Positions 19,242 through 61,897 of a DNA stretch of 64,000 nt are shown one piece after another (position 1 is the stretch's first letter; each line of letters begins with the position of its first letter). A program made the translations under genes and the position numbers. The stretch spans positions 30,621 to 94,620 of the IMG/VR virus record IMGVR_UViG_3300032050_000049; one strand, written 5' to 3'. The notes below the pieces were generated by a model. It saw only the letters and a list, made by a program, of their open reading frames with translations. It ran no database searches and was not told the DNA's origin. This stretch comes from a virus. Lineage: Duplodnaviria; Heunggongvirae; Uroviricota; Caudoviricetes.

Positions 19242-19302
19242 AAAATAAAGTTTATATCATAACATTCTTTATATTTATAAACAGAAATCGTAATTTTATA
19301 AA

Positions 19303-20670: not shown

Positions 20671-20690
20671 TATTAATAGTTATAAGTTAT

Positions 20691-21869
20691 ATGCCACAAC
20701 CAATATCACAATTAGCAGACTATACAACAATAACAGGATCCGCATTTGTTCCTATTGTTGATGTTAATGAAACAGTATCATCAAAAAACAAAAAGATCAG
20801 TGTAGATGATTTGAGAAAAACTTTCTTTAAAAGTGGAGTTCTTCTTTCATCTTCTTTCACAGAACATACGCCGGGTTTTTATTACTTTGGTGACAATCGT
20901 GATGGTCGTCTCAATTTAACAGGTTCAATTGCCACTGTTAGAACTTTTGTAAGCAGATCGTTCGCAAGTACACAAGATGGCGCACCTGTCGTTAAAAACT
21001 TTAGTTCGTTGTTCATTTCCAGAAGTGTGGTGGTGAGTCCAACCAATAGATGTAGAGGATTGTTGATATTTGTGGATGGTGATGCAACCATCAGTGGTAG
21101 CATAAGTATGACTGCTAGAGGAGCGAGGTTTACAGGAAGCGACGCTTCCTTCACAACAATAAATCCGCCATATTTGGGTGATTACTGGAGCACGCAGTTG
21201 TTTCCGTCTGCGAGTTATTTGAGCAGAGTATTTGCGGTTGGAGCGGCTGGTGGTACGGCTGGCCCCGCTCCATCTAGCGTTGGTGGCGTTGGTGTCACTG
21301 GTATACTGGGAAGAAGTGGAGGTGGAGGAGGCGGCGGTGGACAAGCAGCCGCGGGTGGAGCGGGATCAACAGGCACATCTTTTAGTGGTGGATCTGGTGG
21401 TGGAGGAGGTGGGCCATCTCCAGGAGCAAATGGCTTTGCATTTGGTGGTCAAGGTGGTCCAACGCTTGGTAGCGGCGGCGCCGGATCAGGCAATCCAGGT
21501 GGAATAACGCCAGCTCAGCCGCCCAGTAGTCCACTCCCAGTCTCAGCACCAAGTGGTACTGGTGGATTGTTAATATTAATAGTGAAAGGTAATTTAAGAA
21601 TTGGACCAAATGGATCAATTACGGCTAATGGAATCAGTGGTGGTAATGGACTTGCTGGTTTTGGAACTGCTGGTGGCGGTGGAAGTGGAGGTGGAGTGTT
21701 ATATATTTATTATGGTGGGTCTTTAACAAATAATGGCACTGTAACTGCTAATGGTGGGTCAGGTGGTTTAACTGGTACACCCTCGCCAGCTCTTAATCAA
21801 GGCGGAGCAGGAGGAGCTGGAACTGCGATAATATCAAAATTAAACGTTGCATTTCCAGTAGCAAACTAA
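20691..21869 (+). CDS. Gly-rich solenoid-like paralog 1 with N-terminal ITDL module
   Basis: 'NRCRGLLIFVDGDATISG', 'GTGGLLILIVKGNLRIGPNG', 'GGGGSGGGVLYIYYGG..TNNGTVTANGGSGG'. Confidence 0.7.
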   Translation: MPQPISQLADYTTITGSAFVPIVDVNETVSSKNKKISVDDLRKTFFKSGVLLSSSFTEHTPGFYYFGDNRDGRLNLTGSIATVRTFVSRSFASTQDGAPVVKNFSSLFISRSVVVSPTNRCRGLLIFVDGDATISGSISMTARGARFTGSDASFTTINPPYLGDYWSTQLFPSASYLSRVFAVGAAGGTAGPAPSSVGGVGVTGILGRSGGGGGGGGQAAAGGAGSTGTSFSGGSGGGGGGPSPGANGFAFGGQGGPTLGSGGAGSGNPGGITPAQPPSSPLPVSAPSGTGGLLILIVKGNLRIGPNGSITANGISGGNGLAGFGTAGGGGSGGGVLYIYYGGSLTNNGTVTANGGSGGLTGTPSPALNQGGAGGAGTAIISKLNVAFPVAN

Positions 21870-21881
21870 ATAATTATTTAT

Positions 21882-23006
21882 ATGCCTACAAGAATATCAG
21901 ATTTACCCGAATATACAACAATAACATCATCAGCATTTGTGCCTATTGTTGATGTTAATGAATTGGTAGCTTCAAAAAATAAAAAAATAAGAATTGACGA
22001 TTTAAGAAAATATTTTTTCACAGGCACAACCACCAGCAGTTCTTTCACAGAACATACCCCAGGCCTTTATTACTTTGGCGATAACAGCGACGGACCTCTT
22101 AACTTAACAGGCTCTATCGCCACCGTTAGAACTTTTGTAAGCAGATCCTTCGCAAGCACTCAAGATGGCGCGCCTGTCGTTAAGAACTTCAGTTCATTGT
22201 TCATTTCCAGAAGCGTAGTAGTGAGTCCAACAAATAGATGTAGAGGAATGTTGATATTTGTGGATGGTGATGCAACTATTAGTGGTAGTCTACGAATGAA
22301 CGGCAGAGGTGCTTCCGCGGTTGGAGCTGATGCGTCTTTTACAACAATAAATCCGCCATATTTGGGTGATTACTGGAGCACGCAATTGTTTCCTTCGTCG
22401 AGTTATTTGAGCAGAGTATTTGCTGTAGGCGCAGCAGGTTCAGGCTATGGAACTGATGGGGTAACTGGTGTAAATGGAAGATCTGGTGGCGGAGGAGGTG
22501 GGTCTAGTTATGGTGCACCGACAGCAGGTTCAGGCGCAACCGGCACATCGTTTAGTGGTGGTTCTGGTGGAGGTGGATCCCAGGTTAACGTCATCGCCGG
22601 AGGAAGTGCGAGTGGAAATGGTGGCGCAGGGGGAAATGGCGCAACCGGCCCCGGCGGTACCGGCGGCGGTGGAGCTGGAAATCCAGGCGGCACTCCAAAT
22701 GGAGGTGTAGGAACAGGTGGATTATTAATATTAATTGTACGAGGTAATTTAAGAATTGGGCCAAATGGCAGTATAACATCAAATGGTAGCAATGGCGGAA
22801 ATGCAAGTAGTCCAACGCAGGGCGGAGGAGGAGGTGGAAGTGGCGGTGGGGTGTTATATGTATATTATGGCGGTACACTAACAAACAATGGCACTGTAAC
22901 CGCATCTGGAGGCACCCGTGGCACGGGTGGAAACGTTGCTGGAAACGGTGGAGCTGGAACTGCTATATTATCAAAATTAAACGTTGCATTTCCAGCAGCA
23001 AACTAA
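21882..23006 (+). CDS. Gly-rich solenoid-like paralog 2
   Basis: About 75% identical N-terminal half to paralog 1. Confidence 0.7.
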   Translation: MPTRISDLPEYTTITSSAFVPIVDVNELVASKNKKIRIDDLRKYFFTGTTTSSSFTEHTPGLYYFGDNSDGPLNLTGSIATVRTFVSRSFASTQDGAPVVKNFSSLFISRSVVVSPTNRCRGMLIFVDGDATISGSLRMNGRGASAVGADASFTTINPPYLGDYWSTQLFPSSSYLSRVFAVGAAGSGYGTDGVTGVNGRSGGGGGGSSYGAPTAGSGATGTSFSGGSGGGGSQVNVIAGGSASGNGGAGGNGATGPGGTGGGGAGNPGGTPNGGVGTGGLLILIVRGNLRIGPNGSITSNGSNGGNASSPTQGGGGGGSGGGVLYVYYGGTLTNNGTVTASGGTRGTGGNVAGNGGAGTAILSKLNVAFPAAN

Positions 23007-23019
23007 TATTTAATAATAT

Positions 23020-24054
23020 ATGGCAAATAAACGTATAACAGATTTAACCGAAGCAACTTTTGTAAGTGCGAGTAATTTTTATGTTGTGTATGATCCTACA
23101 GCTACACAAGATCAAAATGCTGATGGTTATACTGATTTTAATAAAAAAGTAAAACTAAAAAATATTTGTACCCAAGTAAGTCAATCAGCCATCACTTGGT
23201 TTGGTACAGGCGCAAATGGTGCTTTAAATACAACAGGTAGTGTTACTTTTACCACTACAAATGATCAAGAAGTATTTGTGAGAAATTATACATCTCTCAC
23301 AGTAAATGCTGGTCATACAATGACTGTAAGCAACAGATGTAGAGGATTGTTGATATATGTTGGGGGAGATTGTACTATAAATGGTACAGTAACAATGTCA
23401 GGCAAAGGAGCCAACTCGGTTGGAACAGCTGCTCATTATGTATATCAATCTAAAAATTACTATGGCAACTTTATTCCCCAATATCAATTTAACAGCGTAA
23501 AATTATATGGATCTGGTAGTGCCGGTGGACCCGCAAATACTGCTGGTAGATCCGCAGGCGAAGGTTATACAGGTGGTGGAGGCGGTGGAGGTGGAACTGG
23601 TGGTGCTGGTGCAGCAGGCACCAGTTGGAGTGGTGGATCAGGTGGAGGTGGTGGACCATCTGCAACTGCAGGCACTATAAATGGTGGTGCTGGTGGTAAT
23701 GGTACAGCTGCGAATACTGGTGGTGGTGCTGGTAATGGTGGTGGCAGTGCTGGTCCAGGTGGTATAGCTGGTGGTACTGGTACAGGTGGTTTGATTATTT
23801 TTGTGGTAAAAGGTACATTTACATTGGGAAATACAGGTGCAATAACTGCAAATGGTGTTGCGGGTGGAAATGGTAGTGCAGGAGGAGGAGGAGGTAGTGG
23901 AGGTGGAAGAATAGTTGTATTATACAATCAAAATTATATAAATAATGGTGGTACTATTACTGCAAATGGTGGAGCTGGTGGAGGAACTGCTCCAACTGCT
24001 GGTGGCAGTGGGGGAGCCGGTAGCATAACAATAAGAGAAATAGGAATTTGGTAA
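23020..24054 (+). CDS. Gly-rich solenoid-like paralog 3
   Basis: Same motif set (NRCRGLLIYVGGDCTING; GGGGSGGGRIVVLY). Confidence 0.7.
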   Translation: MANKRITDLTEATFVSASNFYVVYDPTATQDQNADGYTDFNKKVKLKNICTQVSQSAITWFGTGANGALNTTGSVTFTTTNDQEVFVRNYTSLTVNAGHTMTVSNRCRGLLIYVGGDCTINGTVTMSGKGANSVGTAAHYVYQSKNYYGNFIPQYQFNSVKLYGSGSAGGPANTAGRSAGEGYTGGGGGGGGTGGAGAAGTSWSGGSGGGGGPSATAGTINGGAGGNGTAANTGGGAGNGGGSAGPGGIAGGTGTGGLIIFVVKGTFTLGNTGAITANGVAGGNGSAGGGGGSGGGRIVVLYNQNYINNGGTITANGGAGGGTAPTAGGSGGAGSITIREIGIW

Positions 24055-24071
24055 AATATTTATAAAGTTAT

Positions 24072-25313
24072 ATGGCAATACCATCACAAGCAATATCTCA
24101 AATGACTACCTTGGTAGGTAGTAATCGTAACGACAATTGTTTATTTACATTGTATAATGCATTAATATCGTCCAGTGTCAATCAAAATTTAAAAGCAAGA
24201 ATAAGTACCCACGAACAATTTTATAGCAACAACAATACCGTCATAAATCAAGGTACTTATAATAATTACTTTGGAACAGGCAAAGATGGTAGTGTAACCA
24301 TAAGTAGCAGTGCGCAAATAAGTTCATCCACATCTCCAGCTGGATTAAATAATATTAGTCGTGAATTTGGCGACCCAGTTATAAAAAACTTTCAAAATTT
24401 AACCATCAACAGTGGTGTATTGTTCAGCCCATTAAGAGCTTGTAGAGGAATGATAATATATTGTACTGGCAATTTAACAGTAAACGGCACTTTGAGTATG
24501 ACTGGTAAAGGTGGAGGCGTTGGTTCTAAAGTCGCGTCTCCTATTGGATTTGCTACAAGCACCGATTCAAGATATGATTTGGTGGATGCTACATTATATT
24601 TTAACAATTTTTCATCAAGCACTGCAGGTGGAAGAGGAATACCTACACATTGGAATTGGGCGCCTAGTGGTAGTATTTGGTTTAATAATTATAAGATTAG
24701 AGTGCCATTGAGTGGGAGTGCTGCTGGAGGAGGACCAAATAATGGTGGTAGTGCGGGAATATTTTGTTGTGGAGGTGGAGGTGGGGGTGGTCAATCAAAC
24801 CCTGGCGCGGTAAGGGCAGGAGGATCCGGTGGTAGCGGAACTATATTTCTAGGAGGAGGGGGAGGAGGAGGAGGATCATACGGCGGCGGCGCCGGCACCA
24901 ACGGCATATTTGAAGCTGGTGGAATTGGCGGATTTGGGCCTAATCCAGGATTAGGCCCAAATGGTTCTGGCGGAGGTGGAGCTGGAACACCTGCTGGACC
25001 TGGCTCCGGAGGCGCTGGTAATACAGGCGTTGGTGGATTAATTATATTAATAGTACGTGGTAATATTACAATAAACGGCACAGTTTCTAGTGGTGGCGCA
25101 AATGGAGGTAATGGAACTACTGGAGGTGCTGGAGCTGCTGGCGGTGGCGGTGGAAGTGGCGGTGGTAGGATAATAATTATTTACGGCGGTACATATAGTA
25201 ATGTTGGTACCATTGTGGTTAATGGTGGCTCCGGCGGCGCCGGTGGCCCCGGCGCACTCACTGGTGGTGCTGGTGGTGCGGGTTCTATAACTATAAGAAG
25301 GGTAAATGTTTAA
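24072..25313 (+). CDS. Gly-rich solenoid-like paralog 4
   Basis: RACRGMIIYCTGNLTVNG; GGGGSGGGRIIIIYGG. Confidence 0.7.
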   Translation: MAIPSQAISQMTTLVGSNRNDNCLFTLYNALISSSVNQNLKARISTHEQFYSNNNTVINQGTYNNYFGTGKDGSVTISSSAQISSSTSPAGLNNISREFGDPVIKNFQNLTINSGVLFSPLRACRGMIIYCTGNLTVNGTLSMTGKGGGVGSKVASPIGFATSTDSRYDLVDATLYFNNFSSSTAGGRGIPTHWNWAPSGSIWFNNYKIRVPLSGSAAGGGPNNGGSAGIFCCGGGGGGGQSNPGAVRAGGSGGSGTIFLGGGGGGGGSYGGGAGTNGIFEAGGIGGFGPNPGLGPNGSGGGGAGTPAGPGSGGAGNTGVGGLIILIVRGNITINGTVSSGGANGGNGTTGGAGAAGGGGGSGGGRIIIIYGGTYSNVGTIVVNGGSGGAGGPGALTGGAGGAGSITIRRVNV

Positions 25314-25319
25314 AATTTT

Positions 25320-26543
25320 ATGGCTACACAAATATCAAGTTTAACAACACTAGTTAATGGCGTAAACAGTTATGATTGTTTTTTGCCATTGGTTGATCCA
25401 ACATTAGCATTAGATTCTCGTAATGTTAAAATTAGAATAAGTACCCACAATGAAATGTTCAGCAACAACTTTGCTGTAGCTAGTTTGAGCAGTTATGCAA
25501 ACTATTTTGGAACAGGCAAAGATGGTAGCTTAACCATAAGCAGCAGTGCTCAAGTAAGCGCTTCATTGAATAATATTAGTCGTGAATTTGGCGACCCAGT
25601 TATAAAAAACTTTCAAAATTTAACCATCGGCAGTGGTATATTATTTAGTCCACTAAGAGCTTGTAGAGGTATGATAATATATTGCACAGGCGATTTAACG
25701 GTGAATGGTACCATAAGTATGACTGGTAAAGGTGGAGGCGTTGGTTCTAAAGTCGCGTCTCCTATTGGATTTGCTACAAGCACCGATTCAAGATATGATT
25801 TGGTGGATGGCACATTATATTTCAATAATTTTTCATCAAGTACAGCGGGTGGTTATGGAATACCTACGCATTGGAATTGGGCGCCTAGTGGAAGTGTTTG
25901 GTTTAGGAATTATAAGATACGAGTGCCATTGAGCGGAAGTGTTGACGGTGGCAATGGTGCATCGACCGCTGCGGCTTCGGGTAATGCGGGATCAGCTGGT
26001 ATATTTAGTTGTGGTGGCGGCGGTGGTGGTGGTTCCGGAGAATCGCAGTATGGTACTTTTGGATCAGGAGCTTCTGGAGGCAGAGGAACTATATTTTCTG
26101 GTGGTGGCGGTGGAGGAGGCGGCGGCGGTGGATGTTGTGGTGGCAATGTACCTGGTACATCTGGTATTCTTGAAAGAGGAGGAGCAGGGGGAGCTTCTCC
26201 TAACGGCCCAGCGGGTGGAGGAGCGGGAACTACAACTACTGGTGGAAACGGTACATTAGGTGTTGGGGGATTATTAATATTAATTGTACGTGGAAATATA
26301 ATAATTAATGGAACTATTAGTTCAAATGGAGCTAGTGGTGGAAACGGAGTACGTATTAGTAAAGGATCTGGTGGAGGAGGTGGAAGTGGCGGTGGTCGAA
26401 TAATTATAACTTATGGCGGTACATACACTAATGCGGGTTCCGTTGTTGCAAATGGTGGATCAGGTGGTTCTGCCAGCTCTGGCGGTGGTCCAGGTGCGTC
26501 TGGTGGTGCTGGATCTATAACTACAAGAAAGATACATATATGA
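25320..26543 (+). CDS. Gly-rich solenoid-like paralog 5
   Basis: Close paralog of 24072..25313. Confidence 0.7.
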   Translation: MATQISSLTTLVNGVNSYDCFLPLVDPTLALDSRNVKIRISTHNEMFSNNFAVASLSSYANYFGTGKDGSLTISSSAQVSASLNNISREFGDPVIKNFQNLTIGSGILFSPLRACRGMIIYCTGDLTVNGTISMTGKGGGVGSKVASPIGFATSTDSRYDLVDGTLYFNNFSSSTAGGYGIPTHWNWAPSGSVWFRNYKIRVPLSGSVDGGNGASTAAASGNAGSAGIFSCGGGGGGGSGESQYGTFGSGASGGRGTIFSGGGGGGGGGGGCCGGNVPGTSGILERGGAGGASPNGPAGGGAGTTTTGGNGTLGVGGLLILIVRGNIIINGTISSNGASGGNGVRISKGSGGGGGSGGGRIIITYGGTYTNAGSVVANGGSGGSASSGGGPGASGGAGSITTRKIHI

Positions 26544-30541: not shown

Positions 30542-30746
30542 ACTTACTTAGTTTGTTTTTATAACGTTGAATTGTAATGTGATCTTCATCCATATGATTG
30601 TTAGCTTTAACGATTTCTTTACTGAATCGTTCCACTTCATCACACAGATAACGAATGTCTTCACACAGTTTTGCATCAAGCAAATTATTGCAGTTGTAAC
30701 TTGTGAACTGTCGTAGTCTACTAATTACTTCTTGGTTAGTCTTCAT
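30528..30746 (-). CDS. Hypothetical protein (72 aa)
   Basis: ORF. Confidence 0.4.
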   Translation of the reverse strand: MKTNQEVISRLRQFTSYNCNNLLDAKLCEDIRYLCDEVERFSKEIVKANNHMDEDHITIQRYKNKLSKYESF

Positions 30747-49360: not shown

Positions 49361-50140
49361 TTACAGATCGCTATAGTTCTTCAGTTCAATCTTACCATTT
49401 AGTATGGTAATATACTGACTAAGATTACAATCAATACAAATGTTGTTTGCATCAACGATATTAGCAAATCCTTCTCTATGATATTGTGCGGCTTTACCAG
49501 TTCGCCATTGATTTGTATGACCCACAATTTGTCTCAACTCTTCAATGGGTTGAAACTCTTCGTTAAAATCACACCAAACAATACCACCACATTTGTTTCT
49601 ACCACCCCTTGCATATCCAGCGCCATAAAACCAATGTGGTTCATTGATCTTTAGTTTGGTTCTAGCATCATTATCACTTTGATCCAGATACTTGAAGATA
49701 ACTTCATTTGTGGCACAAATTGGAGGTAACAAACGTTTATCCAATCCAGCGTGGGTTAATAGAATATCATCTACAACAATCGACCAGTGAAACTTATCTT
49801 GTATATCACCTCTGACCTTGCCAATAACGTTATCAATTGCATCATACTTCCATTGTTCATAACCACTACACCAAGATGTAGAAGCATTAAACAGATAGTG
49901 TATATCGTGATTACCAAATAGAGTATAGTTCTTTGGGTTAGGAAGAAATACATCTCTTAGATATTTGGCTGTAGCAACATAGTCAGTAACATCATCCAAA
50001 TTGAAACTATCAAACCAATCACCCAAACAAATGTTGATATCGCCATCTTCTTTGGTAAAGATGGTATCCAACTTTGTGTAATGATTATGTGGATCAGCAG
50101 CAATTACAATCTTTTGTTTATTGGAACTAAACTTTAGCAT
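49361..50140 (-). CDS. Calcineurin-like metallophosphoesterase (Ser/Thr-phosphatase-like)
   Basis: 'AADPHNHY', 'GDWFDSF', 'GNHD'. Confidence 0.65.
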   Translation of the reverse strand: MLKFSSNKQKIVIAADPHNHYTKLDTIFTKEDGDINICLGDWFDSFNLDDVTDYVATAKYLRDVFLPNPKNYTLFGNHDIHYLFNASTSWCSGYEQWKYDAIDNVIGKVRGDIQDKFHWSIVVDDILLTHAGLDKRLLPPICATNEVIFKYLDQSDNDARTKLKINEPHWFYGAGYARGGRNKCGGIVWCDFNEEFQPIEELRQIVGHTNQWRTGKAAQYHREGFANIVDANNICIDCNLSQYITILNGKIELKNYSDL

Positions 50141-52563: not shown

Positions 52564-53244
52564 ATGAAAATAATATCTGGAATTTATAAACTCACATCAC
52601 CGTCCGGAAAATGTTATATTGGTCAAAGTAAAAATATATATCAAAGATTTCGTGATCACAAAAGAGCTAATAAACATAAACATTGCAAGTTATATGTTGC
52701 AATTAAAAAATACGGATACGAAAATTTTAAAAAAGAAATAATAGAAGAATGTAACAAAGAAATTTTAGATAAAAAAGAACAATATTGGATTAAATATCAC
52801 AACTCCGTTGATAACGGATATAATTGTGATTATGGTGGACAAATTCATAAAGAATTTGGAAAAGAACATAGAGAAAAATTACGTGCAGCATTTTTAGGAA
52901 AGTATAATGGCAACCAAAATATTGAATTTTACATAGATAACATTTTGTATAAATCAATTGGTGATGCTAGTAAAAAATTAAATATACCCCCTAAAACGAT
53001 ATATAATAGGTTAAATTCTAAAAACATAGAATTTGATAATTATAAATATAAAGATGTAAATTTAATACCAACCAGAAGTATTAGAAAATACGCATCACAA
53101 CCTTTTATTATTGATGGTATAAAATATACCACTATAAAAGAAGCGTCTGAAGTATTAAATATACCATCATCAATATTGAGAAGAAAATTAAAATCTGGTA
53201 AATTGTCAAATTCATCATATATTACACCGCAACATCCGCTTTAA
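52564..53244 (+). CDS. GIY-YIG homing endonuclease (I-TevI-like, free-standing)
   Basis: 'GIYKLTSPSGKCYIGQSKNIYQRFRDHK' GIY-YIG core plus NUMOD-like basic C-terminal repeats. Orientation opposite to neighbours. 3' end overlaps the thyA 3' end. Confidence 0.8.
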   Translation: MKIISGIYKLTSPSGKCYIGQSKNIYQRFRDHKRANKHKHCKLYVAIKKYGYENFKKEIIEECNKEILDKKEQYWIKYHNSVDNGYNCDYGGQIHKEFGKEHREKLRAAFLGKYNGNQNIEFYIDNILYKSIGDASKKLNIPPKTIYNRLNSKNIEFDNYKYKDVNLIPTRSIRKYASQPFIIDGIKYTTIKEASEVLNIPSSILRRKLKSGKLSNSSYITPQHPL

Positions 53245-54373
53245 TTGTTGGGTGTGATTGATAATCTATTAACTTAATATCATCATATTTAAAATCAAAT
53301 AATGATTTTATTTCAGGATTCAACCACAATTTTGGTAACTTCATTGGTTCTCTTGACATTTGTAGTTTAATTTGATCCAAATGGTTCGTATACAAATGTG
53401 CGTCACCGATTGAGTATGTCAATGTACCAGTAGCCATATTGCTTACATGCGACATCATTGCTACCATCAGTGCATATGATGCTATATTAAATGGCTTCCC
53501 AAGAAAAATATCATTTGATCTGATTGTCATCATTAAATTCAAACGACGGGTTGGAATATTAGCGTCATTTAATACTTTTTCATTCATTTCAGGCACAGAT
53601 ACCCATCCTTTATTTCCTCCTGATTTTCTGTATAAATCAAATCGTTCTTCCAGTGTCAATTCTTCTGTATTAAAAATTAGAAAACAATGACAGGGCGGTA
53701 AGGCGCAATGATCTACCCAATGTGGATGCCATGCTGATACGATCATACGACGATCATCTGGATTGGTTTTTAGCTTGTCAATTACTTTTTGTAGTTGATC
53801 TATTCTACCAAAAAACCACGATTCGGCATAATCACCTTTTGTTCCACTCACAGTACCTTTGGGACAAGTGCTTGCATCATTATCATTCACGGTGGTATAA
53901 AACGGAAAATTTCTCCACATTCCGCCATACGTTCCTTCACCTAATTCACCCCATAAAAGTGCAAAATTTGGGTCATCTTTAATTTCTTGAATGAAACGCT
54001 CTTGAGTCCAAGAAGACCGCCACCGATTCCCACCCAAATCGCCATACGGATTTGCTTCATAGGTTTCTTCAGGATGAGATTTGCAAAAATCAATATAGCG
54101 TTTATATGCCCACTCATTCCAGATTCTAACGTTATTGTCAACCAGATACTTGATATTTGTATCACCACTAATGAACCACAGCAATTCGTGAACAATAGCT
54201 GGCCAATGAACTTTCTTTGTGGTTAATAGAGGAAATGCATTTAGATCCACATTGTATTTGGCTTGAGCACCAAAAATGCCAATGGTATCTACCCCAGTTC
54301 TGTTCTTTTTAAGTTTTCCGTTTGTCAAAATATCATTGACAATTCTGAAATATTCTGTGTCTACTTTGTTCAT
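53222..54373 (-). CDS. thyA: Thymidylate synthase (ThyA, long form with two insertions)
   Basis: 'RTGVDTIGIFG', 'DDRRMIVSAWHP', catalytic 'PPCHCFLIFN', 'FNIASYALMVAMMSHV', 'GDAHLYTNH'. Confidence 0.85.
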   Translation of the reverse strand: MNKVDTEYFRIVNDILTNGKLKKNRTGVDTIGIFGAQAKYNVDLNAFPLLTTKKVHWPAIVHELLWFISGDTNIKYLVDNNVRIWNEWAYKRYIDFCKSHPEETYEANPYGDLGGNRWRSSWTQERFIQEIKDDPNFALLWGELGEGTYGGMWRNFPFYTTVNDNDASTCPKGTVSGTKGDYAESWFFGRIDQLQKVIDKLKTNPDDRRMIVSAWHPHWVDHCALPPCHCFLIFNTEELTLEERFDLYRKSGGNKGWVSVPEMNEKVLNDANIPTRRLNLMMTIRSNDIFLGKPFNIASYALMVAMMSHVSNMATGTLTYSIGDAHLYTNHLDQIKLQMSREPMKLPKLWLNPEIKSLFDFKYDDIKLIDYQSHPTIKADVAV

Positions 54374-54866: not shown

Positions 54867-55300
54867 TGTATATAATTTAAAATTAGTTTGATTGATTGTT
54901 CAATAGAATTTTTATCGGTGTCAATATCAAGATAGTTATTTAATGGCGGTTCATAATAATCCACCATCTTACCCTCCCTTAATCTGTTACTATGTAGATA
55001 TACTTCTTTTACAATATGTGTAGAATCATTTTTTAATGAGTCTCTTAAATTTCTGAACGGAGATACTAACGACATTATTGTGTAATTATATAATTTGTTG
55101 CTAGTTTTTGCCATTTCTATAGCTAATCTCACATTACTTTTTCTGCCACTAATACTATAGTCTTTATTGTTACTAATACTACGTAACGTATCCCCATCAA
55201 TAGTTACAGCTGTACGATTTGTTTTTGTTAAAAGTGTTTCTAATGTTAACGCCAATGTGGTTTTACCACTATTTGGTTGACCTGTTAATATAATAATCAT
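54863..55300 (-). CDS. cysC: Adenylylsulfate (APS) kinase-like P-loop kinase
   Basis: 'LTGQPNSGKTTLA' and 'IDGDTLR...NKD..S...R..NVR...E.AK...SLVSPFRNLRD' parallel the CysC 'LDGDNVRHGLNKDLGFS..DR.ENIRR..EVAK...SFISPYR.DRD'. Confidence 0.65.
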   Translation of the reverse strand: MIIILTGQPNSGKTTLALTLETLLTKTNRTAVTIDGDTLRSISNNKDYSISGRKSNVRLAIEMAKTSNKLYNYTIMSLVSPFRNLRDSLKNDSTHIVKEVYLHSNRLREGKMVDYYEPPLNNYLDIDTDKNSIEQSIKLILNYIQ

Positions 55301-55944
55301 AACAATATTTTCTTTTCGTGTTTTACCACAACTTCAGGATGTACCCAAACATCAATACCACATTCTTTTACCAAATGACAAAAGCTTACGTCTTCCATTG
55401 TAAACTCCGTAACATTGCCAAATTGTTTCCAAATTGGTCTAAACCATGGATATTTCAATTTTTCAAATACACCCCGTTTTATAAGTATAAAGCCAAATCC
55501 AGTGTAGTCTACTGTAAATGGATCTTTGAATTGTTTTAATTTATCGAAAGTTAAAAATTCAAAACTACCATACTTCTTAAAATGATCTTCGTTCCAATCT
55601 TTTACAGTAGCATAGTGCGTACCATCTTGCATTAGATATAAACCAGATGCAATATCTTTCTTTATATTGAATAGCTTAATGAAGTCATCCACTTTGAACA
55701 TATTGTCACTATCAATCCAAAGTATATAATCATATTCGATTCTACCTTGCCATGGCTTTTGATTTTCTCCAGCATTAGAATCACCACCCAAACACATATT
55801 ACGTACATAATAGATGTTACACGATTCTCTACGAGAAAGTATAGGAGTTATTTTGTTATGAATACACCAATTATAAAATGGTATAAAACTATCTAACCAC
55901 TGACCAGAGAAATTATTGCCGGGTAAACAAATTATTAATCTCAT
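55297..55944 (-). CDS. Glycosyltransferase (DxD type)
   Basis: 'ILWIDSDNMF', 'ASGLY'; paralogous to the next gene. Confidence 0.55.
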   Translation of the reverse strand: MRLIICLPGNNFSGQWLDSFIPFYNWCIHNKITPILSRRESCNIYYVRNMCLGGDSNAGENQKPWQGRIEYDYILWIDSDNMFKVDDFIKLFNIKKDIASGLYLMQDGTHYATVKDWNEDHFKKYGSFEFLTFDKLKQFKDPFTVDYTGFGFILIKRGVFEKLKYPWFRPIWKQFGNVTEFTMEDVSFCHLVKECGIDVWVHPEVVVKHEKKILL

Positions 55945-56690
55945 GATTTAAAAAACAAATTGTTTTGTACAAACAAGTTACCTTTATAACCTTTCCAACC
56001 ATAGTGAGTCAAGTTACAAGTGGTATCTACATATATCTTACCACCGATACTTCTATAAAGATTACAAAAGCCATAATCTTCACTTTCATATTTCTTTGTC
56101 TTTTCATTTATTTTACATGGAAAGAAATCATAGAACTTATCCCCATATCCCATATACCCATCAATGTCATTCTTATATGCTATATTAGGCATTTCTCTAG
56201 AAATTTGATTGAAGACACGTTTCTTGAATAACATGAATCCAGTAGCAGCATAATTTACTTCTTCAATGTTTTTCATTTCGGGATTGAGTTTAATTTCTGT
56301 AGCAAAGTCGGTACATAGTTCTTCGTAATTATCACCGATCATTTCTGGTCCTTGTTTTGCTAACAACTTTACTTTAGACGAATTAATATACTTCTTGGGA
56401 TATAAACCTGAAATAACATCTTTATCAGCCTTTAACAATGAAAAGAAACTCTCGGGTTCAAATGATATATCACTATCAATGAACATCATATAATCACAAT
56501 CCGGTTGATTTAGAAAATTAGCAGCTGCAGCATTTCTAGCTCTAGCAATCAAACTTTCAAAGTATATACAATCCAAACTAAATGATATACCCCTACGTTG
56601 TCCCTCAAATATCAACTTCATCACACTAAACATAAAGTGTGATAGTACAGTATGATTATAACAAATCACAGGCAAATAAACTTTGGTCAT
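55941..56690 (-). CDS. Glycosyltransferase (DxD type)
   Basis: 'MMFIDSDISF', 'ISGLYP'. Confidence 0.55.
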   Translation of the reverse strand: MTKVYLPVICYNHTVLSHFMFSVMKLIFEGQRRGISFSLDCIYFESLIARARNAAAANFLNQPDCDYMMFIDSDISFEPESFFSLLKADKDVISGLYPKKYINSSKVKLLAKQGPEMIGDNYEELCTDFATEIKLNPEMKNIEEVNYAATGFMLFKKRVFNQISREMPNIAYKNDIDGYMGYGDKFYDFFPCKINEKTKKYESEDYGFCNLYRSIGGKIYVDTTCNLTHYGWKGYKGNLFVQNNLFFKS

Positions 56691-56923
56691 AGTATGATCT
56701 TTTCCTTCTCAAAATATTCAGTAACTTCATCATTCCAAGGCTTGTTGATGTCATCTAACTTATTAGCAATAGAACGCATTATATGTGACGGCCAGCAACC
56801 ATCATTACTTGGCCAGAAATAATAATAACCATCAACATCCATAATAAGTTCACCAACTAAATGATTATTCGGAGTCAGTACGTGGAACTTCTGGTTGTTG
56901 ATCTGTTTGTAAATTAGATTCAT
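56687..56923 (-). CDS. Hypothetical protein (78 aa)
   Basis: ORF. Confidence 0.35.
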   Translation of the reverse strand: MNLIYKQINNQKFHVLTPNNHLVGELIMDVDGYYYFWPSNDGCWPSHIMRSIANKLDDINKPWNDEVTEYFEKEKIIL

Positions 56924-57365
56924 TTTTTTCTAAAACAATATTTGTAGTACCCTCGTAATTTACCCCACCAATAACATTAATAATAAATTTGTTGGTGATG
57001 GTTCCCTCCAAGTTACTAGTAACAATATAACTCTCTTGTACGCTTCCGTCAAGAAAAAACACAATTTTGGTAGAACTTGATTCAAGTATCTTCAAGTCAT
57101 TTGTAACAGCATCCATCAAATAAACATCATCAAATGAACTATACATATTATAGTTTTCATCAAACGTAAGTTCAAACTCACGTTGTTGAAATGCTGCTTG
57201 ATGTTTGAGATTAATCAATAGTGTCTTTAAGTTTTCTCTAGCTTCAAAATATCTATTGTTACCAACTAGACTATCATAGTTGATAACAATTGCACCAATA
57301 ATACCAAGCAATATGGTTATGGCTAATACTAACTCTATTAGTGTAAATGCTTTATTGTTTTTCAC
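56865..57365 (-). CDS. Type IV pilin/pseudopilin-like protein
   Basis: N-terminal 'MKNNKA|FTLIELVLAITILLGIIGAIV' (prepilin-like leader, Glu at +5, hydrophobic helix). Position -1 is Ala rather than Gly. Confidence 0.5.
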   Translation of the reverse strand: MKNNKAFTLIELVLAITILLGIIGAIVINYDSLVGNNRYFEARENLKTLLINLKHQAAFQQREFELTFDENYNMYSSFDDVYLMDAVTNDLKILESSSTKIVFFLDGSVQESYIVTSNLEGTITNKFIINVIGGVNYEGTTNIVLEKNESNLQTDQQPEVPRTDSE

Positions 57366-57609
57366 GAATTAGTTTTAATTTTTGTTGACGGGTCAATTGT
57401 TTGATTTGATACTCCCTCTTCATTGCTTCACTTTTACTATTAAAACATTCGGTATATACTAATCTAACTGGTAATCGTGTCTTAGTATATTTAGCACCAC
57501 ACCCTCTAGAATGATCACTAACTCGTTTTTCAACATTATTAGAGTAACCACAATAGAGGGTGTTGTCCCCACAAATAACTATATAGCAACAATGATTCTT
57601 AACTATCAC
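57352..57609 (-). CDS. GIY-YIG nuclease-family small protein (YhbQ/UPF0213-like)
   Basis: 'YIVICGDNTLYCGYSNNVEKRVSDH...EYQIKQLTRQQKLKLI' matches the YhbQ pattern. Confidence 0.7.
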   Translation of the reverse strand: MIVKNHCCYIVICGDNTLYCGYSNNVEKRVSDHSRGCGAKYTKTRLPVRLVYTECFNSKSEAMKREYQIKQLTRQQKLKLIREKQ

Positions 57610-57988
57610 ATCGTATATCTAATTTCGCTGTAGGAGTATAAGTGCCCAATCCAATATTGCCATTTGAAGCAATGGTCAATCGTGATTCTACACCATAATA
57701 TCCAAATGAATTTGTTTCTGCTTTAACTACAGCTGGTTTATTTAGTGGCGAACAAATATTGATTGAAATATTCTCACTATTATTAACTAGGATTTCAAAG
57801 TTATCACTATCTCTGAATTGCATTACACAAGTAGCACCATCACTACGAGTAAATACAAGTTTTTCACAAGTTAATACTTTTTCAGACGAAGAAGCTGGTT
57901 CTGATGCTTTAACAGTTGAACCAGCAACAACACCTGCGATTCCTCCAAATAGGGTGGAGAAAAACCCTTTACGATTTAGTTTTTCCAT
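57599..57988 (-). CDS. Secreted hypothetical protein
   Basis: N-terminal signal peptide. Confidence 0.45.
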   Translation of the reverse strand: MEKLNRKGFFSTLFGGIAGVVAGSTVKASEPASSSEKVLTCEKLVFTRSDGATCVMQFRDSDNFEILVNNSENISINICSPLNKPAVVKAETNSFGYYGVESRLTIASNGNIGLGTYTPTAKLDIRCDS

Positions 57989-58028
57989 ATAATATACTAT
58001 ATCATAGTATGGATACTAAATCAATATT

Positions 58029-58346
58029 TTATTTCTTAAATAGTTCTTTGATACTAACTCCGTGTTTGTTGTCTTTGAAAGACCAAATGGATGGTTTCTT
58101 TTTTAGATATAGATCTTGATTAGCATACAACTCTTTTACACAATTATCTGTTTTAACGATGACCACTTTGTGTTTACCATCTGCGTCTAGTTGGTTTTTG
58201 AATTGAACTAAATGACCGTCTGACCAAGCCATTTGTTGTTTACATACAATACAAGTTCTACCAGACTTTTTCTTGGCAAAGATACTTGCATTTGCATTTG
58301 TTGCGGTTAATACTAATAGTCCAACAATTAATAATACTTTATTCAT
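58029..58346 (-). CDS. Secreted hypothetical protein
   Basis: Signal peptide 'MNKVLLIVGLLVLTATNANA'. Confidence 0.45.
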   Translation of the reverse strand: MNKVLLIVGLLVLTATNANASIFAKKKSGRTCIVCKQQMAWSDGHLVQFKNQLDADGKHKVVIVKTDNCVKELYANQDLYLKKKPSIWSFKDNKHGVSIKELFKK

Positions 58347-58380
58347 AATAACTCAAAGATAACATATATCGAATACAATG

Positions 58381-59406
58381 TCAACGTATATAATAAAGAA
58401 CACGTTGCAAAACATATTGATAGGTATCAAACCATTTTTTATTACCCAACTGATATTTTGGTATCTTACTCAAGTCAATTGATTCACTATAAATTGCATA
58501 TGAACTTAAATAAGCATCATTACAATTGGCGTGTTGTTCATAATGATTAGGCATTGGTATCATCAACAATGGTTTGTTTTGATATATAGCTTCAGCACTT
58601 GTTTCAAATCCACCACTACATACTACTGCCTTACATACCTTCATCTTTTCTTGAAATAGTTTACCATCAAGATTAAATAATTTTAAATTTGGTAGTTCAT
58701 CATATTGTTTGGTTAATTTGGTAAAACAATGAATATTGATATCTGGATATTTTTTTGCTTGATTAATCAATTGCGGTAACATATCTTCATTCATTAGATA
58801 TACCAACACAAAGTCTTCTTGTTTGTGTGATACACTATAACTTTCACTTCTTAATATTGGAGGACTTGCAATCATAACATCATCATTAAATTCATAATAA
58901 CTTAATGCTACGATTTTGGATCTGATACTAGTGATTTTGTTTATGATATTTAAAAATAACTTTTGTACAGGATATCCATTGATTCGTGGATATATAATAG
59001 AATCCATTGCGTATTGATGTCCAAAGCTTACATACTTTATGTTTTTAAAGAATAATGCGGTTAGACCTACCAGTGGTTCATAATAGTTGAATATAGCATC
59101 TGGTTTTTCTTTTTGGATGATGCTACAGATTTTAATGAATGATACAATTAAGCGTGGTAATTCAAATGTGTTGTTCAATATGGTTTTCCAGATAACAACT
59201 CTACCTACACTATCAAATACAAAATCAAATCCATCATAGTCTACTACGTTAAATTCGTCTGTAAAATATTTAGATAACCCCCGTTTCTTTTTAGCTGCAA
59301 AAGCAGTTGTTACCTCAATGCCTTGCGATTGTAGATATTGTTTGGTTGCTATAGCTTGTGTAATGTGTCCATTACCTTCAGTTTGAACTCCGAATAATAT
59401 CTTCAT
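58381..59406 (-). CDS. GT28-family glycosyltransferase (UgtP/MGDG-synthase-like diacylglycerol glycosyltransferase)
   Basis: N-terminal 'QTEGNGHITQAIATKQYL' against UgtP 'ANYGNGHVQVAKTLYEQ'. C-terminal GT-B motif 'VCSGGFETSAEAIYQNKPLLMIPMPNHYEQHANCN'. Confidence 0.65.
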   Translation of the reverse strand: MKILFGVQTEGNGHITQAIATKQYLQSQGIEVTTAFAAKKKRGLSKYFTDEFNVVDYDGFDFVFDSVGRVVIWKTILNNTFELPRLIVSFIKICSIIQKEKPDAIFNYYEPLVGLTALFFKNIKYVSFGHQYAMDSIIYPRINGYPVQKLFLNIINKITSIRSKIVALSYYEFNDDVMIASPPILRSESYSVSHKQEDFVLVYLMNEDMLPQLINQAKKYPDINIHCFTKLTKQYDELPNLKLFNLDGKLFQEKMKVCKAVVCSGGFETSAEAIYQNKPLLMIPMPNHYEQHANCNDAYLSSYAIYSESIDLSKIPKYQLGNKKWFDTYQYVLQRVLYYIR

Positions 59407-60113
59407 AATTTGATTAGTTTTATGTCACCTTCTAATGTCTCAATTATATACGATGTATTTTCTCCAACAATAAAACTACCACAATTGTAATAGTTTATAC
59501 CATCAATAATGGTACATTCTGGTTTGTGTATATGACCGCATAAAATACTATCGTGTCCACTATTTTTACAATAGTGTACAACGGTAGCTTCATAATTGCC
59601 TATGTACTTAACTGCTTCTTTTGCTTTTTGTTTGAGAAAGTTACTGAAGCTAAATTTGAATATTCTAAATAGTTTATTTACCGACAAACTATAATCGTAT
59701 ATTACTGAACCAATATGTTGTATCCACTTATTTTTGGTTACTAATCCATCAAATTGATCTCCGTGAATAATTAATATTCTTTCGTTTTTTAATGTGGTAT
59801 GAGTGATTTCTCTTACAACTTGTATATTATCGCCAAAGTATATGTCATTGAATGGTTCGATAAAGTCATCGTGGTTACCCCAAATATAATATACTTTGGT
59901 TCCTTTACGACTCATACGCAATATTTTTTGCAATATTGTGTTATAATTGCTATGCCACTTAAACTTTCTACTCAATAACCAACCATCAATAAAATCACCT
60001 ACAATATACAAATATTCACATTCAACTTCACTTAATAGTTTCAATAATTTTTCGTGGTTACAAAAATCACTACCTATATGACAATCACTTATAAATAATG
60101 TGCGTACTTTCAT
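59403..60113 (-). CDS. LpxH-family metallophosphoesterase (UDP-2,3-diacylglucosamine hydrolase-like)
   Basis: Collinear LpxH motifs 'TLFISDCHIG', 'YIVGDFIDGW', 'YIWGNHDDF', 'LIIHGDQFDG', 'LCGHIHKP'. Confidence 0.7.
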   Translation of the reverse strand: MKVRTLFISDCHIGSDFCNHEKLLKLLSEVECEYLYIVGDFIDGWLLSRKFKWHSNYNTILQKILRMSRKGTKVYYIWGNHDDFIEPFNDIYFGDNIQVVREITHTTLKNERILIIHGDQFDGLVTKNKWIQHIGSVIYDYSLSVNKLFRIFKFSFSNFLKQKAKEAVKYIGNYEATVVHYCKNSGHDSILCGHIHKPECTIIDGINYYNCGSFIVGENTSYIIETLEGDIKLIKL

Positions 60114-60144
60114 TATTTATAAATATTCATACACTTGTTACAGA

Positions 60145-60546
60145 CTAGTTACGATTTTTTCGGAACTGGCAATCGGTCATCCAGCAATCGCAATGGATAC
60201 ATTCTCCATTGTGGTCTGGTTTGCATGGCAATTGAAAGATATTACCAATCACTTCTAAATTTTCTGAAAGTAAATTACAAAATGGAATGCTTTCTTTACC
60301 ATTTTCAGTAATAGCCCATCCAAAGTCTTTTGATACAACTTCAGCAGCATATCTTACATCATACTTATCGTAAGTTGCTTTATTATAAATAATATCCCCT
60401 TGGTAAATTTCTTTACCATTTTTATCTTTTAAGCCGGTAAACCATTGAATAGTTCTACCTTGTTTCTTAAATTCTTCATATGGATAACAAGTAATTGGAG
60501 ATTCATCCCAACAATTGTATTTTTCGTCCCAAGCTCTGTATTTCAT
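60145..60546 (-). CDS. YopX-domain protein
   Basis: 'MKYRAWD...FTGLKDKNGKEIYQGDII...VIGNIFQ'. Confidence 0.65.
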   Translation of the reverse strand: MKYRAWDEKYNCWDESPITCYPYEEFKKQGRTIQWFTGLKDKNGKEIYQGDIIYNKATYDKYDVRYAAEVVSKDFGWAITENGKESIPFCNLLSENLEVIGNIFQLPCKPDHNGECIHCDCWMTDCQFRKNRN

Positions 60547-60547
60547 A

Positions 60548-60883
60548 TTATTTCTTTGTTTTCTTTAATGTTTGATGAATATTACCCACAACAAGTAGAT
60601 CTTCATCAAACATTGCTAGAGGAAATTCATCTAAATACCACCCATAACTATCCCAGATTACATTACTATAATGGTTTTTACGCCCAAACTTTTGTCTGAC
60701 GATATCACCTTCGAAGATTCTAGTGCCTTTGATATCATTTAGTCCAGTATATTCTTCAATGATGGTTTCATTGCGATTAAAGCATTGTGCTAGATGTGCA
60801 GTACCTTCACAACCATAAAGAGAACCAGTCATAGTGTACTTGTTTTCTTTGATGTTAAAGATTCTGTAAATGAATTGTCTCAT
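60548..60883 (-). CDS. YopX-domain protein
   Basis: 'YTGLNDIKGTRIFEGDIV...VVGNIHQ'. Confidence 0.6.
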   Translation of the reverse strand: MRQFIYRIFNIKENKYTMTGSLYGCEGTAHLAQCFNRNETIIEEYTGLNDIKGTRIFEGDIVRQKFGRKNHYSNVIWDSYGWYLDEFPLAMFDEDLLVVGNIHQTLKKTKK

Positions 60884-61254
60884 AGTAGTTTTAGATGTTT
60901 AGTGACTGGATCTATAATGGAACTATAATTAGGTCCAATAGATATACAAGTGATAGTAGGTTCATCAAACAAGTCATTTTCTTGAATATAATAAACTTTT
61001 AGTCCAATAGCAACAGCTTGATGTCCAATATCAAGCAATTCTTTTTCATCCTTTGCTGCTAAACAAACCTTATAGAAGGTTCCGTTAATCCATTGTTCTT
61101 CACACTTATAGAATGGAATAATATCGTCGGGATATGCTCTGACTAGATTGGTTAAGAAAGCAATACTTGCGTGAGCACCTTGAACAACCATTTGTCCTTT
61201 GCTCAATTTTATATCCTTACGAAACACAATAACTTGTTTTACTTTATCGTTCAT
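60880..61254 (-). CDS. Peptidyl-tRNA hydrolase, PTH2 family
   Basis: 'KQVIVFRKDIKLSKGQMVVQGAHAS' against PTH2 '[25 protein letters not shown]'; 'ISIGPN...IDPVTKHLKLL' against 'LGIGPG..DLIDKVTGHLKLY'. Confidence 0.75.
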   Translation of the reverse strand: MNDKVKQVIVFRKDIKLSKGQMVVQGAHASIAFLTNLVRAYPDDIIPFYKCEEQWINGTFYKVCLAAKDEKELLDIGHQAVAIGLKVYYIQENDLFDEPTITCISIGPNYSSIIDPVTKHLKLL

Positions 61255-61453
61255 TTTTTACTTTAATTGGATATAACCAAAATTCGTTATTACACACTTC
61301 ACATTTGGCTTTTGACATTCTGGTATGATCGTTTGGGTCACTTACAATATTAACCAATTCACCTTCAAGTGCTTCAAATTTGGAACTGCAATTATAACAA
61401 TCACCAACCCACACTCTTTGTTCTGGAGGAGTGCCTCGTTTGATACATTTCAT
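61244..61453 (-). CDS. Zinc-ribbon small protein
   Basis: CYNC...CEVC. Confidence 0.4.
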   Translation of the reverse strand: MKCIKRGTPPEQRVWVGDCYNCSSKFEALEGELVNIVSDPNDHTRMSKAKCEVCNNEFWLYPIKVKNER

Positions 61454-61456
61454 ATA

Positions 61457-61897
61457 TTAGTGTCCTTTACTATTATCAATTTTGACGGGAGCAGTTAGTA
61501 TTTCTTTATTTTTGTTATAATTGCCTAGATACTTGTATTCACGTTGAACAAATTGTAGAACACCACCGGTTCGTTCATATACCATAAAGCCAAAGTGTTC
61601 ATATACGACTCTACCAATGGTAGTTTTGATACCTAGAGGTAGTTCAACGATATCACCCTCATATAGATATTCACCGTTTGTGGCTTTAAAGCCGGTACAC
61701 AGTTCAATTTTATAAGCTTCTTGGTCTACATCACATTTTGATGCATCGTCTTGATTAGTACCAATAGATGTTACAAAGTCAACAAGATTACCATTAGGGT
61801 CTAGGTAATAGTTTGATGTGCAATGTAGTGATGAACCGGGATATTCAGGTTCGTGAGTATAACATTCAGCATTTTTGCTCCAGATACGATATTTCAT
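61457..61897 (-). CDS. YopX-domain protein
   Basis: 'MKYRIW...CTGFKATNGEYLYEGDIV'. Confidence 0.6.
   Translation of the reverse strand: MKYRIWSKNAECYTHEPEYPGSSLHCTSNYYLDPNGNLVDFVTSIGTNQDDASKCDVDQEAYKIELCTGFKATNGEYLYEGDIVELPLGIKTTIGRVVYEHFGFMVYERTGGVLQFVQREYKYLGNYNKNKEILTAPVKIDNSKGH

Follow-up and report, generated by a model that had tools for sequence, protein, structure and literature searches.

The record IMGVR_UViG_3300032050_000049, from a tailed phage, carries two adjacent genes whose products would together exchange membrane phospholipid for glycolipid. They lie at 58381-60113 of the 64,000-nucleotide stretch analysed here (positions 30,621 to 94,620 of the record; hereafter the window) and encode a metallophosphoesterase of the PlcP family followed by a glycosyltransferase (GT) of the GT-B fold. 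That the pair modifies membrane lipids is very probable. The best explanation for it, which we hold with moderate confidence, is phage-borne lipid renovation, in which host phospholipid would be converted to diacylglycerol and then to a glycolipid, sparing phosphorus; here we infer the substrates, the sugar donor and the benefit to the phage. A first-pass annotation had instead grouped the genes at 55297-60113 into one envelope-remodelling cluster and placed the phosphoesterase on the lipid A pathway. This region holds nine contiguous open reading frames (ORFs), all on the minus strand; the seven that it had named are among them, and so are the motifs that it quoted (GNGH, DxD and the N-terminus of a pilin-like protein).

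A phosphoesterase of the PlcP family

The phosphoesterase matches the Pfam family Metallophos (E 1.2e-14). As the first-pass annotation had noticed, it is collinear with LpxH, the UDP-2,3-diacylglucosamine hydrolase of the lipid A pathway: it aligns with residues 5-199 (about 195 residues) of the Pseudomonas aeruginosa enzyme (PDB 5B49), and LpxH proteins are its best sequence matches in the PDB (E 2.4e-6). The likeness extends to the calcineurin-like fold, to a helical cap inserted at the same position and to the seven metal ligands (D10, H12, D40, N80, H117, H195 and H197), all of which are kept when the window protein is aligned with LpxH and with PlcP enzymes. Among named families the NCBIfam LpxH models come out on top, yet they score well below their cut-offs (56.1 vs 134 bits for NF003743, and 42 vs 190.35 bits for TIGR01854).

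Similarity to PlcP enzymes is higher. By blastp, the window protein aligned over its full length with PA3219 of P. aeruginosa at 35.8% identity (E 1.5e-61) and with SMc00171 of Sinorhizobium meliloti, also at 35.8% identity (E 1e-53), whereas it reached 24% with the LpxH of Escherichia coli (E 2e-6) and of Proteus (E 8e-10). Bit scores were 166-186 to the two former proteins and 38-49 to LpxH. PA3219 and SMc00171 are experimentally validated PlcP phospholipases C, which make diacylglycerol in phosphorus starvation (PMC8528852, PMC4796936). Both turned up in a search of plasmid and replicon proteins as full-length homologues, 36% identical, whose annotation reads 'UDP-2,3-diacylglucosamine diphosphatase'. 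Behind the P. aeruginosa gene come a family-1 glycosyltransferase and an adenylate cyclase gene, which makes it PA3219, the neighbour of agt1 (PA3218) and cyaB; the S. meliloti gene adjoins the quorum-sensing genes sinR/sinI and is therefore SMc00171. Hence the P. aeruginosa gene that is annotated as LpxH at this level of similarity is a PlcP.

Phylogeny and motifs give the same answer. LpxH serves as the outgroup of PlcP in the literature (PMC9239053), and in our neighbour-joining tree (Poisson distances) the validated PlcPs grouped with the enzymes of bacterial operons and of phages in 100 of 100 bootstrap replicates, apart from LpxH and from an LpxH-like paralogue found in Cyclobacteriaceae. 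The window protein carries the PlcP-type motifs SDxHLG, GDxxDGW, GNHD, HGDQFD, FS.S..K...K.A and CGHIH; GNHD stands where the E. coli and Proteus LpxH have GNRD, and HGDQFD where LpxH has HGDTLC. Judged from these comparisons, the phosphoesterase is a member of the PlcP family and stands outside the lipid A pathway, to which it had been assigned. We predict a phospholipase C activity for it, and infer its substrate.

A glycosyltransferase of the MJ1255/VC2487 family

The start codon of the GT gene overlaps the stop codon of the phosphoesterase gene by 4 nt (ATGA), and its product begins with MKILFGVQTEGNGH. This N-terminus holds the sequence EGNGH at residues 10-14, in which G11, G13 and H14 are invariant across an alignment of 53 family members, the window protein included. 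In total, 15 residues are invariant in that alignment and the window protein keeps every one of them (G11, G13, H14, Q17, S169, P183, R186, Y203, G266, F267, E272, K278, P284, Q291 and N294). It matches PF13528 (Glyco_trans_1_3) with 96.1 bits, over a cut-off of 25, along residues 1-311 of 341. More than 100 full-length variants exist in metagenomes, and near-identical proteins are labelled 'TIGR00661 family' by JGI.

The enzyme had been described as a GT28 akin to UgtP and to synthases of monogalactosyldiacylglycerol (MGDG), a description that holds for the fold and not for the family. A search for PF06925 (MGDG_synth) returned no match at E <= 0.1, PF04101 (Glyco_tran_28_C) matched weakly (24.4 bits, cut-off 22) and PF03033 stayed below its cut-off (16.6 vs 26.2 bits). 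The profile specific to its family is PF13528/TIGR00661. It shares with the wider GT28/GT1 group (MurG, UgtP, plant MGD1 and Ugt51) the GT-B fold and the N-terminal G-x-G-H loop, and its C-terminal nucleotide-sugar motif GGFETSAEA...P...EQ..N aligns with MurG. Using hhalign, the family profile was aligned to E. coli MurG over both domains with 90% probability, and to Agt1 with only 1.9%. The AlphaFold model has a GT-B fold and a mean predicted local distance difference test (pLDDT) of 95.5. Its nearest structures are enzymes that glycosylate hydrophobic alcohols or lipid I, the closest solved ones being GT1 enzymes for sterols, triterpenes, flavonoids and macrolides. The isoelectric point (pI) is 9.4 for the N-domain and 5.3 for the C-domain; a basic N-domain with an acidic C-domain is typical of membrane-peripheral GT-B enzymes. 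From these profiles and models we assign the protein to the MJ1255/VC2487 family (PF13528/TIGR00661), which is MurG/GT1-like and presumably inverting, and which is related to the GT28 enzyme MurG at the level of the superfamily.

A two-gene operon conserved in bacteria and viruses

Distant relatives of the GT were collected from a library of 1.8 billion proteins (1434 matches), a profile was built and scanned over one genome per GTDB species, and the best 80 bacterial loci were analysed. In 59 of these 80 loci, which come from Bacteroidota, Verrucomicrobiota and some Proteobacteria, the gene just before the MJ1255-type GT, read from the same strand and often overlapping it at the stop and start codons, encodes a homologue of the phosphoesterase. 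The phosphoesterase gene is also directly upstream of the GT relative in all 17 of the IMG/VR contigs that carry one, at GT identities ranging from 28 to 92%. The pairing is tight and widely conserved.

The rest of the proposed cluster behaves differently: its other genes were found in none of the 80 bacterial loci. In viruses, the two GT-A glycosyltransferases, the pilin-like protein and the two small secreted proteins, like the GIY-YIG protein and the kinase, occur in the closest relatives only, in varying combinations; the first five are absent from relatives below about 75% GT identity. Because the phosphoesterase and the GT-B alone are linked across bacterial and viral loci, we conclude that the real unit is a two-gene operon at 58381-60113, that the larger cluster is an accident of neighbourhood, and that the remaining genes in 55297-58346 are unrelated neighbours.

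Eight bacterial loci, all from Cyclobacteriaceae (L006, L016, L022, L040, L047, L050, L052 and L066), hold further genes around the pair. A sigma-54 two-component pair comes before it and a GH63/MGH1-like glycoside hydrolase of about 890 aa after it, and some 6 kb upstream these loci encode another phosphoesterase, which is LpxH-like.

Diacylglycerol as the probable shared intermediate

In bacteria, plcP typically precedes a gene whose product consumes diacylglycerol, be it agt, pgt, btaAB or a UgtP-like GT (PMC4796936, PMC9239053). We scanned IMG/VR with a PlcP profile, which gave at least 579 matches on viral contigs, and analysed the best 80 (L187-L266, among them L194, L198, L204, L206, L222 and L233). 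All 80 are PlcP-type: their median identity to the validated PlcPs is 51%, their median score 266 bits, and none scores above 49 bits against LpxH. Neighbouring genes on several of these contigs strongly match phage families (ribonucleotide reductase phrog_367, an HNH endonuclease and phrog_35576), so the contigs look viral. A homologue of Agt1, itself a validated diacylglycerol glycosyltransferase, follows PlcP at a distance of 3-12 nt in 27 of the 80 loci, giving the canonical plcP-agt order with a GT4 enzyme, while an MJ1255-type GT occupies the slot behind PlcP in six. The two are equivalent in position, and two unrelated GT families in one slot behind PlcP are the signature of a non-orthologous replacement of one function.

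The bacterial pairs point the same way. Their most enriched neighbour is a DAGK_cat/YegS_C lipid kinase, encoded directly downstream or divergently in 11 loci, among them one of a gammaproteobacterium. A parallel is found in Bacillus subtilis, where diacylglycerol production, UgtP and DgkB form a triangle. Three independent lines (the PlcP partner, the diacylglycerol kinase neighbours and the positional equivalence with Agt) thus make diacylglycerol the likely acceptor of the GT-B, and the role of diacylglycerol glycosyltransferase that the first-pass annotation had suggested is the best-supported reading for this enzyme.

A link with phosphorus is suggested by the surroundings of other viral PlcPs and by the control of the bacterial pathway. 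The gene pstS adjoins the PlcP homologue of Pelagibacter phage Mosig, and plcP, agt and pstS stand in a row on viral contig L222. The bacterial PlcP pathway, for its part, is controlled by phosphorus stress (PMC4796936, PMC8528852).

The following scheme would account for these observations. A PlcP-type phospholipase C, dependent on manganese or another metal, would strip the phosphorylated head group from the phosphatidylethanolamine and phosphatidylglycerol of the host, leaving diacylglycerol. The GT-B would then transfer a sugar from a nucleotide sugar to diacylglycerol, so that a phosphorus-free glycolipid takes the place of the phospholipid and the membrane stays intact; since this GT-B fold group is inverting, the product would presumably be beta-linked. 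The freed phospho-head groups would feed the phosphate pool used for phage DNA and nucleotide synthesis, and the two genes would be auxiliary metabolic genes of use where the water is poor in phosphorus.

Weighing the lipid-renovation model

Several points weigh against this model. In the phosphoesterase, the motif GDWVES, nearly universal in PlcPs, reads GSFIVGENT through a two-residue insertion in the window and in contigs L091 and L101, and is intact in other phage relatives; its presence in two related contigs means that it is not a sequencing error. Seven residues of the cap region are also missing throughout the phage PlcP clade, and given these two changes the phage enzyme may differ in its substrate preference or range. 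In the GT, the match to TIGR00661 (104.7 bits over residues 2-306) is under the subfamily cut-off of 195.9, and the choice of diacylglycerol as acceptor comes from context. For the MJ1255/VC2487 family (TIGR00661, PF13528) no published function appeared in the literature searched, itself incomplete. The diacylglycerol kinase adjoins the pair in only 11 of the 59 paired loci. As to regulation, Fjoh_0541 of Flavobacterium johnsoniae, a gene induced when phosphate is depleted, is listed as a pf04101 GT within a PhoBR operon (PMC8115612), and for this reason PhoB/PhoR were sought beside the bacterial pairs and beside unpaired GTs; none were found there, only sigma-54 and a few OmpR-type regulators. 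Finally, neither pstS nor phoH is among the annotated ORFs of the window, an annotation that covers part of it.

It is rather unlikely, though the most serious alternative, that the same reactions serve a change of the envelope instead of phosphorus recovery, for instance superinfection exclusion through a block of adsorption or DNA entry, or the timing of lysis. According to a review, which cites unpublished data for this, phages adsorb to P. aeruginosa with a different efficiency once its lipids are remodelled under phosphorus limitation, and the review also mentions altered membrane proteins in a plcP mutant (PMC9804370); the window also encodes pilin-like and secreted proteins in the same region, and its ORFs that were examined include no further gene for phosphorus acquisition. 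These neighbours are, however, unlinked to the pair beyond the closest relatives, pstS adjoins viral plcP in both Mosig and L222, and in bacteria the pathway is a response to phosphorus stress (PMC4796936, PMC8528852). Phosphorus economy is likewise better supported than the altered lipopolysaccharide (LPS) that the first-pass annotation had envisaged, and the glycans of a virion envelope, which it had also considered, are implausible for a tailed phage. A different chemistry, on some other lipophilic or nucleotide-linked substrate, seems to us unlikely: for instance, the phosphoesterase would cleave another phosphodiester or a pyrophosphate, and the GT-B would glycosylate a carotenoid, a sterol-like compound, a polyprenol or a small molecule, with diacylglycerol uninvolved. 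This would suit the GT1 enzymes for sterols, triterpenes, flavonoids and macrolides among the closest solved structures, a GT family that is uncharacterised in the literature searched, the divergence of the phage enzyme from typical PlcPs in its cap region and its GDWVES motif, and the GH63/MGH1-like hydrolases flanking the pair in eight bacterial loci. It fits poorly with the place of the phosphoesterase inside a clade that holds two experimentally validated PlcPs, with the adjacency of diacylglycerol kinase and with Agt standing in the place of the GT-B on other viral contigs.

The original proposal, that an LpxH-type UDP-2,3-diacylglucosamine hydrolase and a GT alter lipid A or LPS within a seven-gene envelope cluster, is largely refuted by phylogeny and synteny, and we regard it as very improbable. 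It drew on genuine features: the best matches in the PDB and the leading NCBIfam models are LpxH, homologues are annotated as 'UDP-2,3-diacylglucosamine diphosphatase' in databases, and the genes are contiguous on one strand. But the model scores are far under their cut-offs (56 vs 134 and 42 vs 190 bits), GNHD replaces GNRD and the bootstrap separation from LpxH is complete. The P. aeruginosa 'LpxH' of like similarity is the PlcP PA3219, and the Cyclobacteriaceae loci hold a separate paralogue that is more LpxH-like. As for the cluster, its other five genes are missing from all the bacterial loci and from the viral relatives of lower GT identity. We therefore retain lipid renovation for phosphorus as the preferred explanation of the PlcP-GT pair.

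Neighbouring genes and the rest of the window

The window is an AT-rich piece of a myophage-like genome, with baseplate and tail-fibre matches in PHROG, RNA and DNA ligases and a thymidylate synthase. We looked for tRNAs in it and found none. At the nucleotide level, 55000-60200 matched none of 50,697 phage records, and the RNA ligase has distant matches only, to a freshwater cyanophage and a Limnohabitans phage. The genes of the region are listed in Table 1.

Table 1. Genes of the module and of its surroundings, with positions in the window.
Feature	Position	Strand	Remarks
PlcP-type metallophosphoesterase, 236 aa	59403-60113	-	Predicted phospholipase C releasing diacylglycerol; first part of the core
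GT-B glycosyltransferase, MJ1255/VC2487 family, 341 aa	58381-59406	-	Predicted diacylglycerol glycosyltransferase; second part of the core
105-aa protein with Sec-type signal peptide	58029-58346	-	Neighbour outside the module
129-aa protein with signal-like/hydrophobic N-terminus and tail-fibre-like C-terminal motif	57599-57988	-	Neighbour outside the module
Stand-alone GIY-YIG domain protein, 85 aa	57352-57609	-	Pfam GIY-YIG, E 1.5e-20; neighbour
Pilin-/pseudopilin-like protein, 166 aa, leader MKNNKA/FTLIE	56865-57365	-	Neighbour
78-aa ORF (orf78)	56687-56923	-	Neighbour; without family match
GT-A glycosyltransferase, 249 aa, phrog_1574, DxD motif FIDSD	55941-56690	-	Unit separate from the module, with the next two genes
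Paralogous GT-A glycosyltransferase, 215 aa, phrog_1574, DxD motif WIDSD	55297-55944	-	
Short APS-kinase-like P-loop kinase, 145 aa	54863-55300	-	Pfam APS_kinase, E 4e-16; just beyond the claimed cluster

The pilin-like protein deserves its name in part. It passes Pfam N_methyl (24.0 bits, cut-off 21.2), falls just under TIGR02532 (15.8 vs 16.3 bits) and matches NCBIfam minor-pilin models at its N-terminus only, with no recognisable C-terminal domain. The N-terminus FTLIE has F at +1 and E at +5 and leads into a strongly hydrophobic segment (Kyte-Doolittle 19-residue maximum of 2.83, residues 10-28), but the Gly of a prepilin peptidase site is missing, its place at -1 being taken by Ala. The protein is acidic (pI 4.5) and 83-97% conserved in its closest metagenomic relatives, and has no homologue in the 50,697 phage records.

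Of the two proteins said to be secreted, the one of 105 aa has a classical signal peptide (N-terminus MNKVLLIVGLLVLTATNANA/S), no family match in profile searches and, among viral relatives, a counterpart only in L091. The other, of 129 aa, has a weaker N-terminal hydrophobic stretch and is likewise confined to the closest relatives; its last 30 residues, 99-128 (NGNIGLGTYTPTAKLDI), weakly match PHROG tail-fibre families (E about 1e-3). The 78-aa ORF drew a blank in the family profile searches.

The two DxD glycosyltransferases had been correctly recognised. They match phrog_1574 with E 1e-40 (55941-56690) and E 7e-58 (55297-55944), D72 and D74 of the DxD motif are invariant in the family alignment, and Pfam Glycos_transf_2 is hit with only 14-16 bits, below its cut-off. 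An AlphaFold2 model of the product of 55941-56690 (pLDDT 93.7) found as its best Foldseek matches STIV A197, the glycosyltransferase domain of LH3 and the protein O-GalNAc transferase GalNAc-T2, all with GT-A folds. The likeness to STIV A197 and to the collagen glycosyltransferase domain of LH3 lies in fold, DxD motif and size (Foldseek E 7e-9 to 3e-8), with only 10-14% identity, and phrog_1574 has no assigned function. Homologues of the product of 55297-55944, about 40% identical, are present in 104 cyanomyophage records, elsewhere in those genomes, and the GT-A family occurs in at least 538 IMG/VR loci. Together with the APS-kinase-like gene, the GT-A pair forms a trio joined by 4-nt overlaps (translationally coupled) that is gained and lost together: contig L088 lacks all three. 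'cysC' is listed as a viral gene in a virome paper on Lake Baikal. That the GT-A pair glycosylates virion proteins is speculation. Collagen-like fibre proteins are encoded in the window.

The order thymidylate synthase - DHFR - P-loop kinase - glycosyltransferases had raised the idea of DNA hypermodification. For the GT-B we dropped it, as in bacteria and viruses alike this gene goes with PlcP. For the GT-A pair and the kinase it is at most a possibility, as nothing that we found speaks for it: a DHFR is there, and the thymidylate synthase falls into the usual families of that enzyme. This synthase (53222-54373, minus strand) has 383 aa, about 100 more than usual, and its gene is abutted by a GIY-YIG homing-endonuclease-like ORF (52564-53244, plus strand). 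In the relatives L089, L101 and L105 this position is taken by a different ThyA of 287 aa with only 27-28% identity, which points to gene replacement.

Other features were noted in passing. Directly upstream of the PlcP gene, at 60145-61897 (minus strand), are small early-type genes, including at least one for a YopX-domain protein with paralogues and one for a PTH2 peptidyl-tRNA hydrolase. A second calcineurin-like phosphoesterase (49361-50140, minus strand, 259 aa) is unrelated and resembles neither PlcP nor LpxH. At 17874-26543 (plus strand), seven ORFs in succession, of 344-455 aa, are without PHROG match and lie in a stretch whose GC content is 0.41-0.45, against about 0.32 around it.

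Discussion

Bacteria are well known to renovate their lipids by way of PlcP, and the closest model for the phage module is the PlcP-Agt operon described in S. meliloti (SMc00171), Phaeobacter MED193, SAR11 HTCC7211 and P. aeruginosa (PA3219-PA3218). The window shares with it a first gene of the PlcP clade (36% identity and common motifs), a GT gene directly behind it on the same strand, and the predicted chemistry. The differences are as clear. Agt is a GT4 enzyme and retaining, whereas the phage partner is an MJ1255/VC2487-type GT-B and presumably inverting, the two families being essentially unalignable as profiles. The phage PlcP is shorter than the bacterial enzymes, without their N- and C-terminal extensions and seven of their cap residues, and with its variant of GDWVES. 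And the module sits on a lytic-type myophage genome without recognisable Pho box context.

Cyanomyophages and pelagiphages carry pstS, phoA and phoH, host-derived genes of abundant aquatic myophages that are thought to ease phosphorus limitation during infection. Those genes act on the uptake of external phosphate, whereas the pair described here would mine the membrane of the host, an internal store of phosphorus. No report of PlcP lipid renovation encoded by a phage or virus appeared in the literature searched, a search that was incomplete, so an earlier description may exist elsewhere.

The findings also concern how such genes are named. In a virome paper on Lake Baikal, 'lpxH' appears among the viral genes for LPS biosynthesis (PMC9611531), which shows how they are misnamed at present. 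PlcP-type genes of phages and viromes that are labelled as LpxH or LPS biosynthesis are a systematic annotation error. A broader picture can be drawn from this, which we put forward tentatively as a real possibility: aquatic tailed phages would widely carry PlcP with a diacylglycerol GT, either Agt or MJ1255-type, as a class of auxiliary metabolic genes for phosphorus that has gone unrecognised and that draws on the phospholipids of the host during infection; the MJ1255/VC2487 enzymes would be a further family of diacylglycerol GTs, partners of PlcP in Bacteroidota, Verrucomicrobiota and phages; and viral 'lpxH' genes would be misassigned.

Membrane phospholipids are a large store of phosphorus, and their replacement by glycolipids, driven by PlcP, is a major bacterial adaptation to phosphorus scarcity. 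The phage pair offers a testable function for the large and uncharacterised MJ1255/VC2487 family of GTs. If abundant phages carry this pathway, infection itself could drive the conversion of phospholipids to glycolipids in natural waters, adding to the effects of phage genes of the pstS and phoA type, and the reading of lipid biomarkers and of plcP gene counts in metagenomes would be affected.

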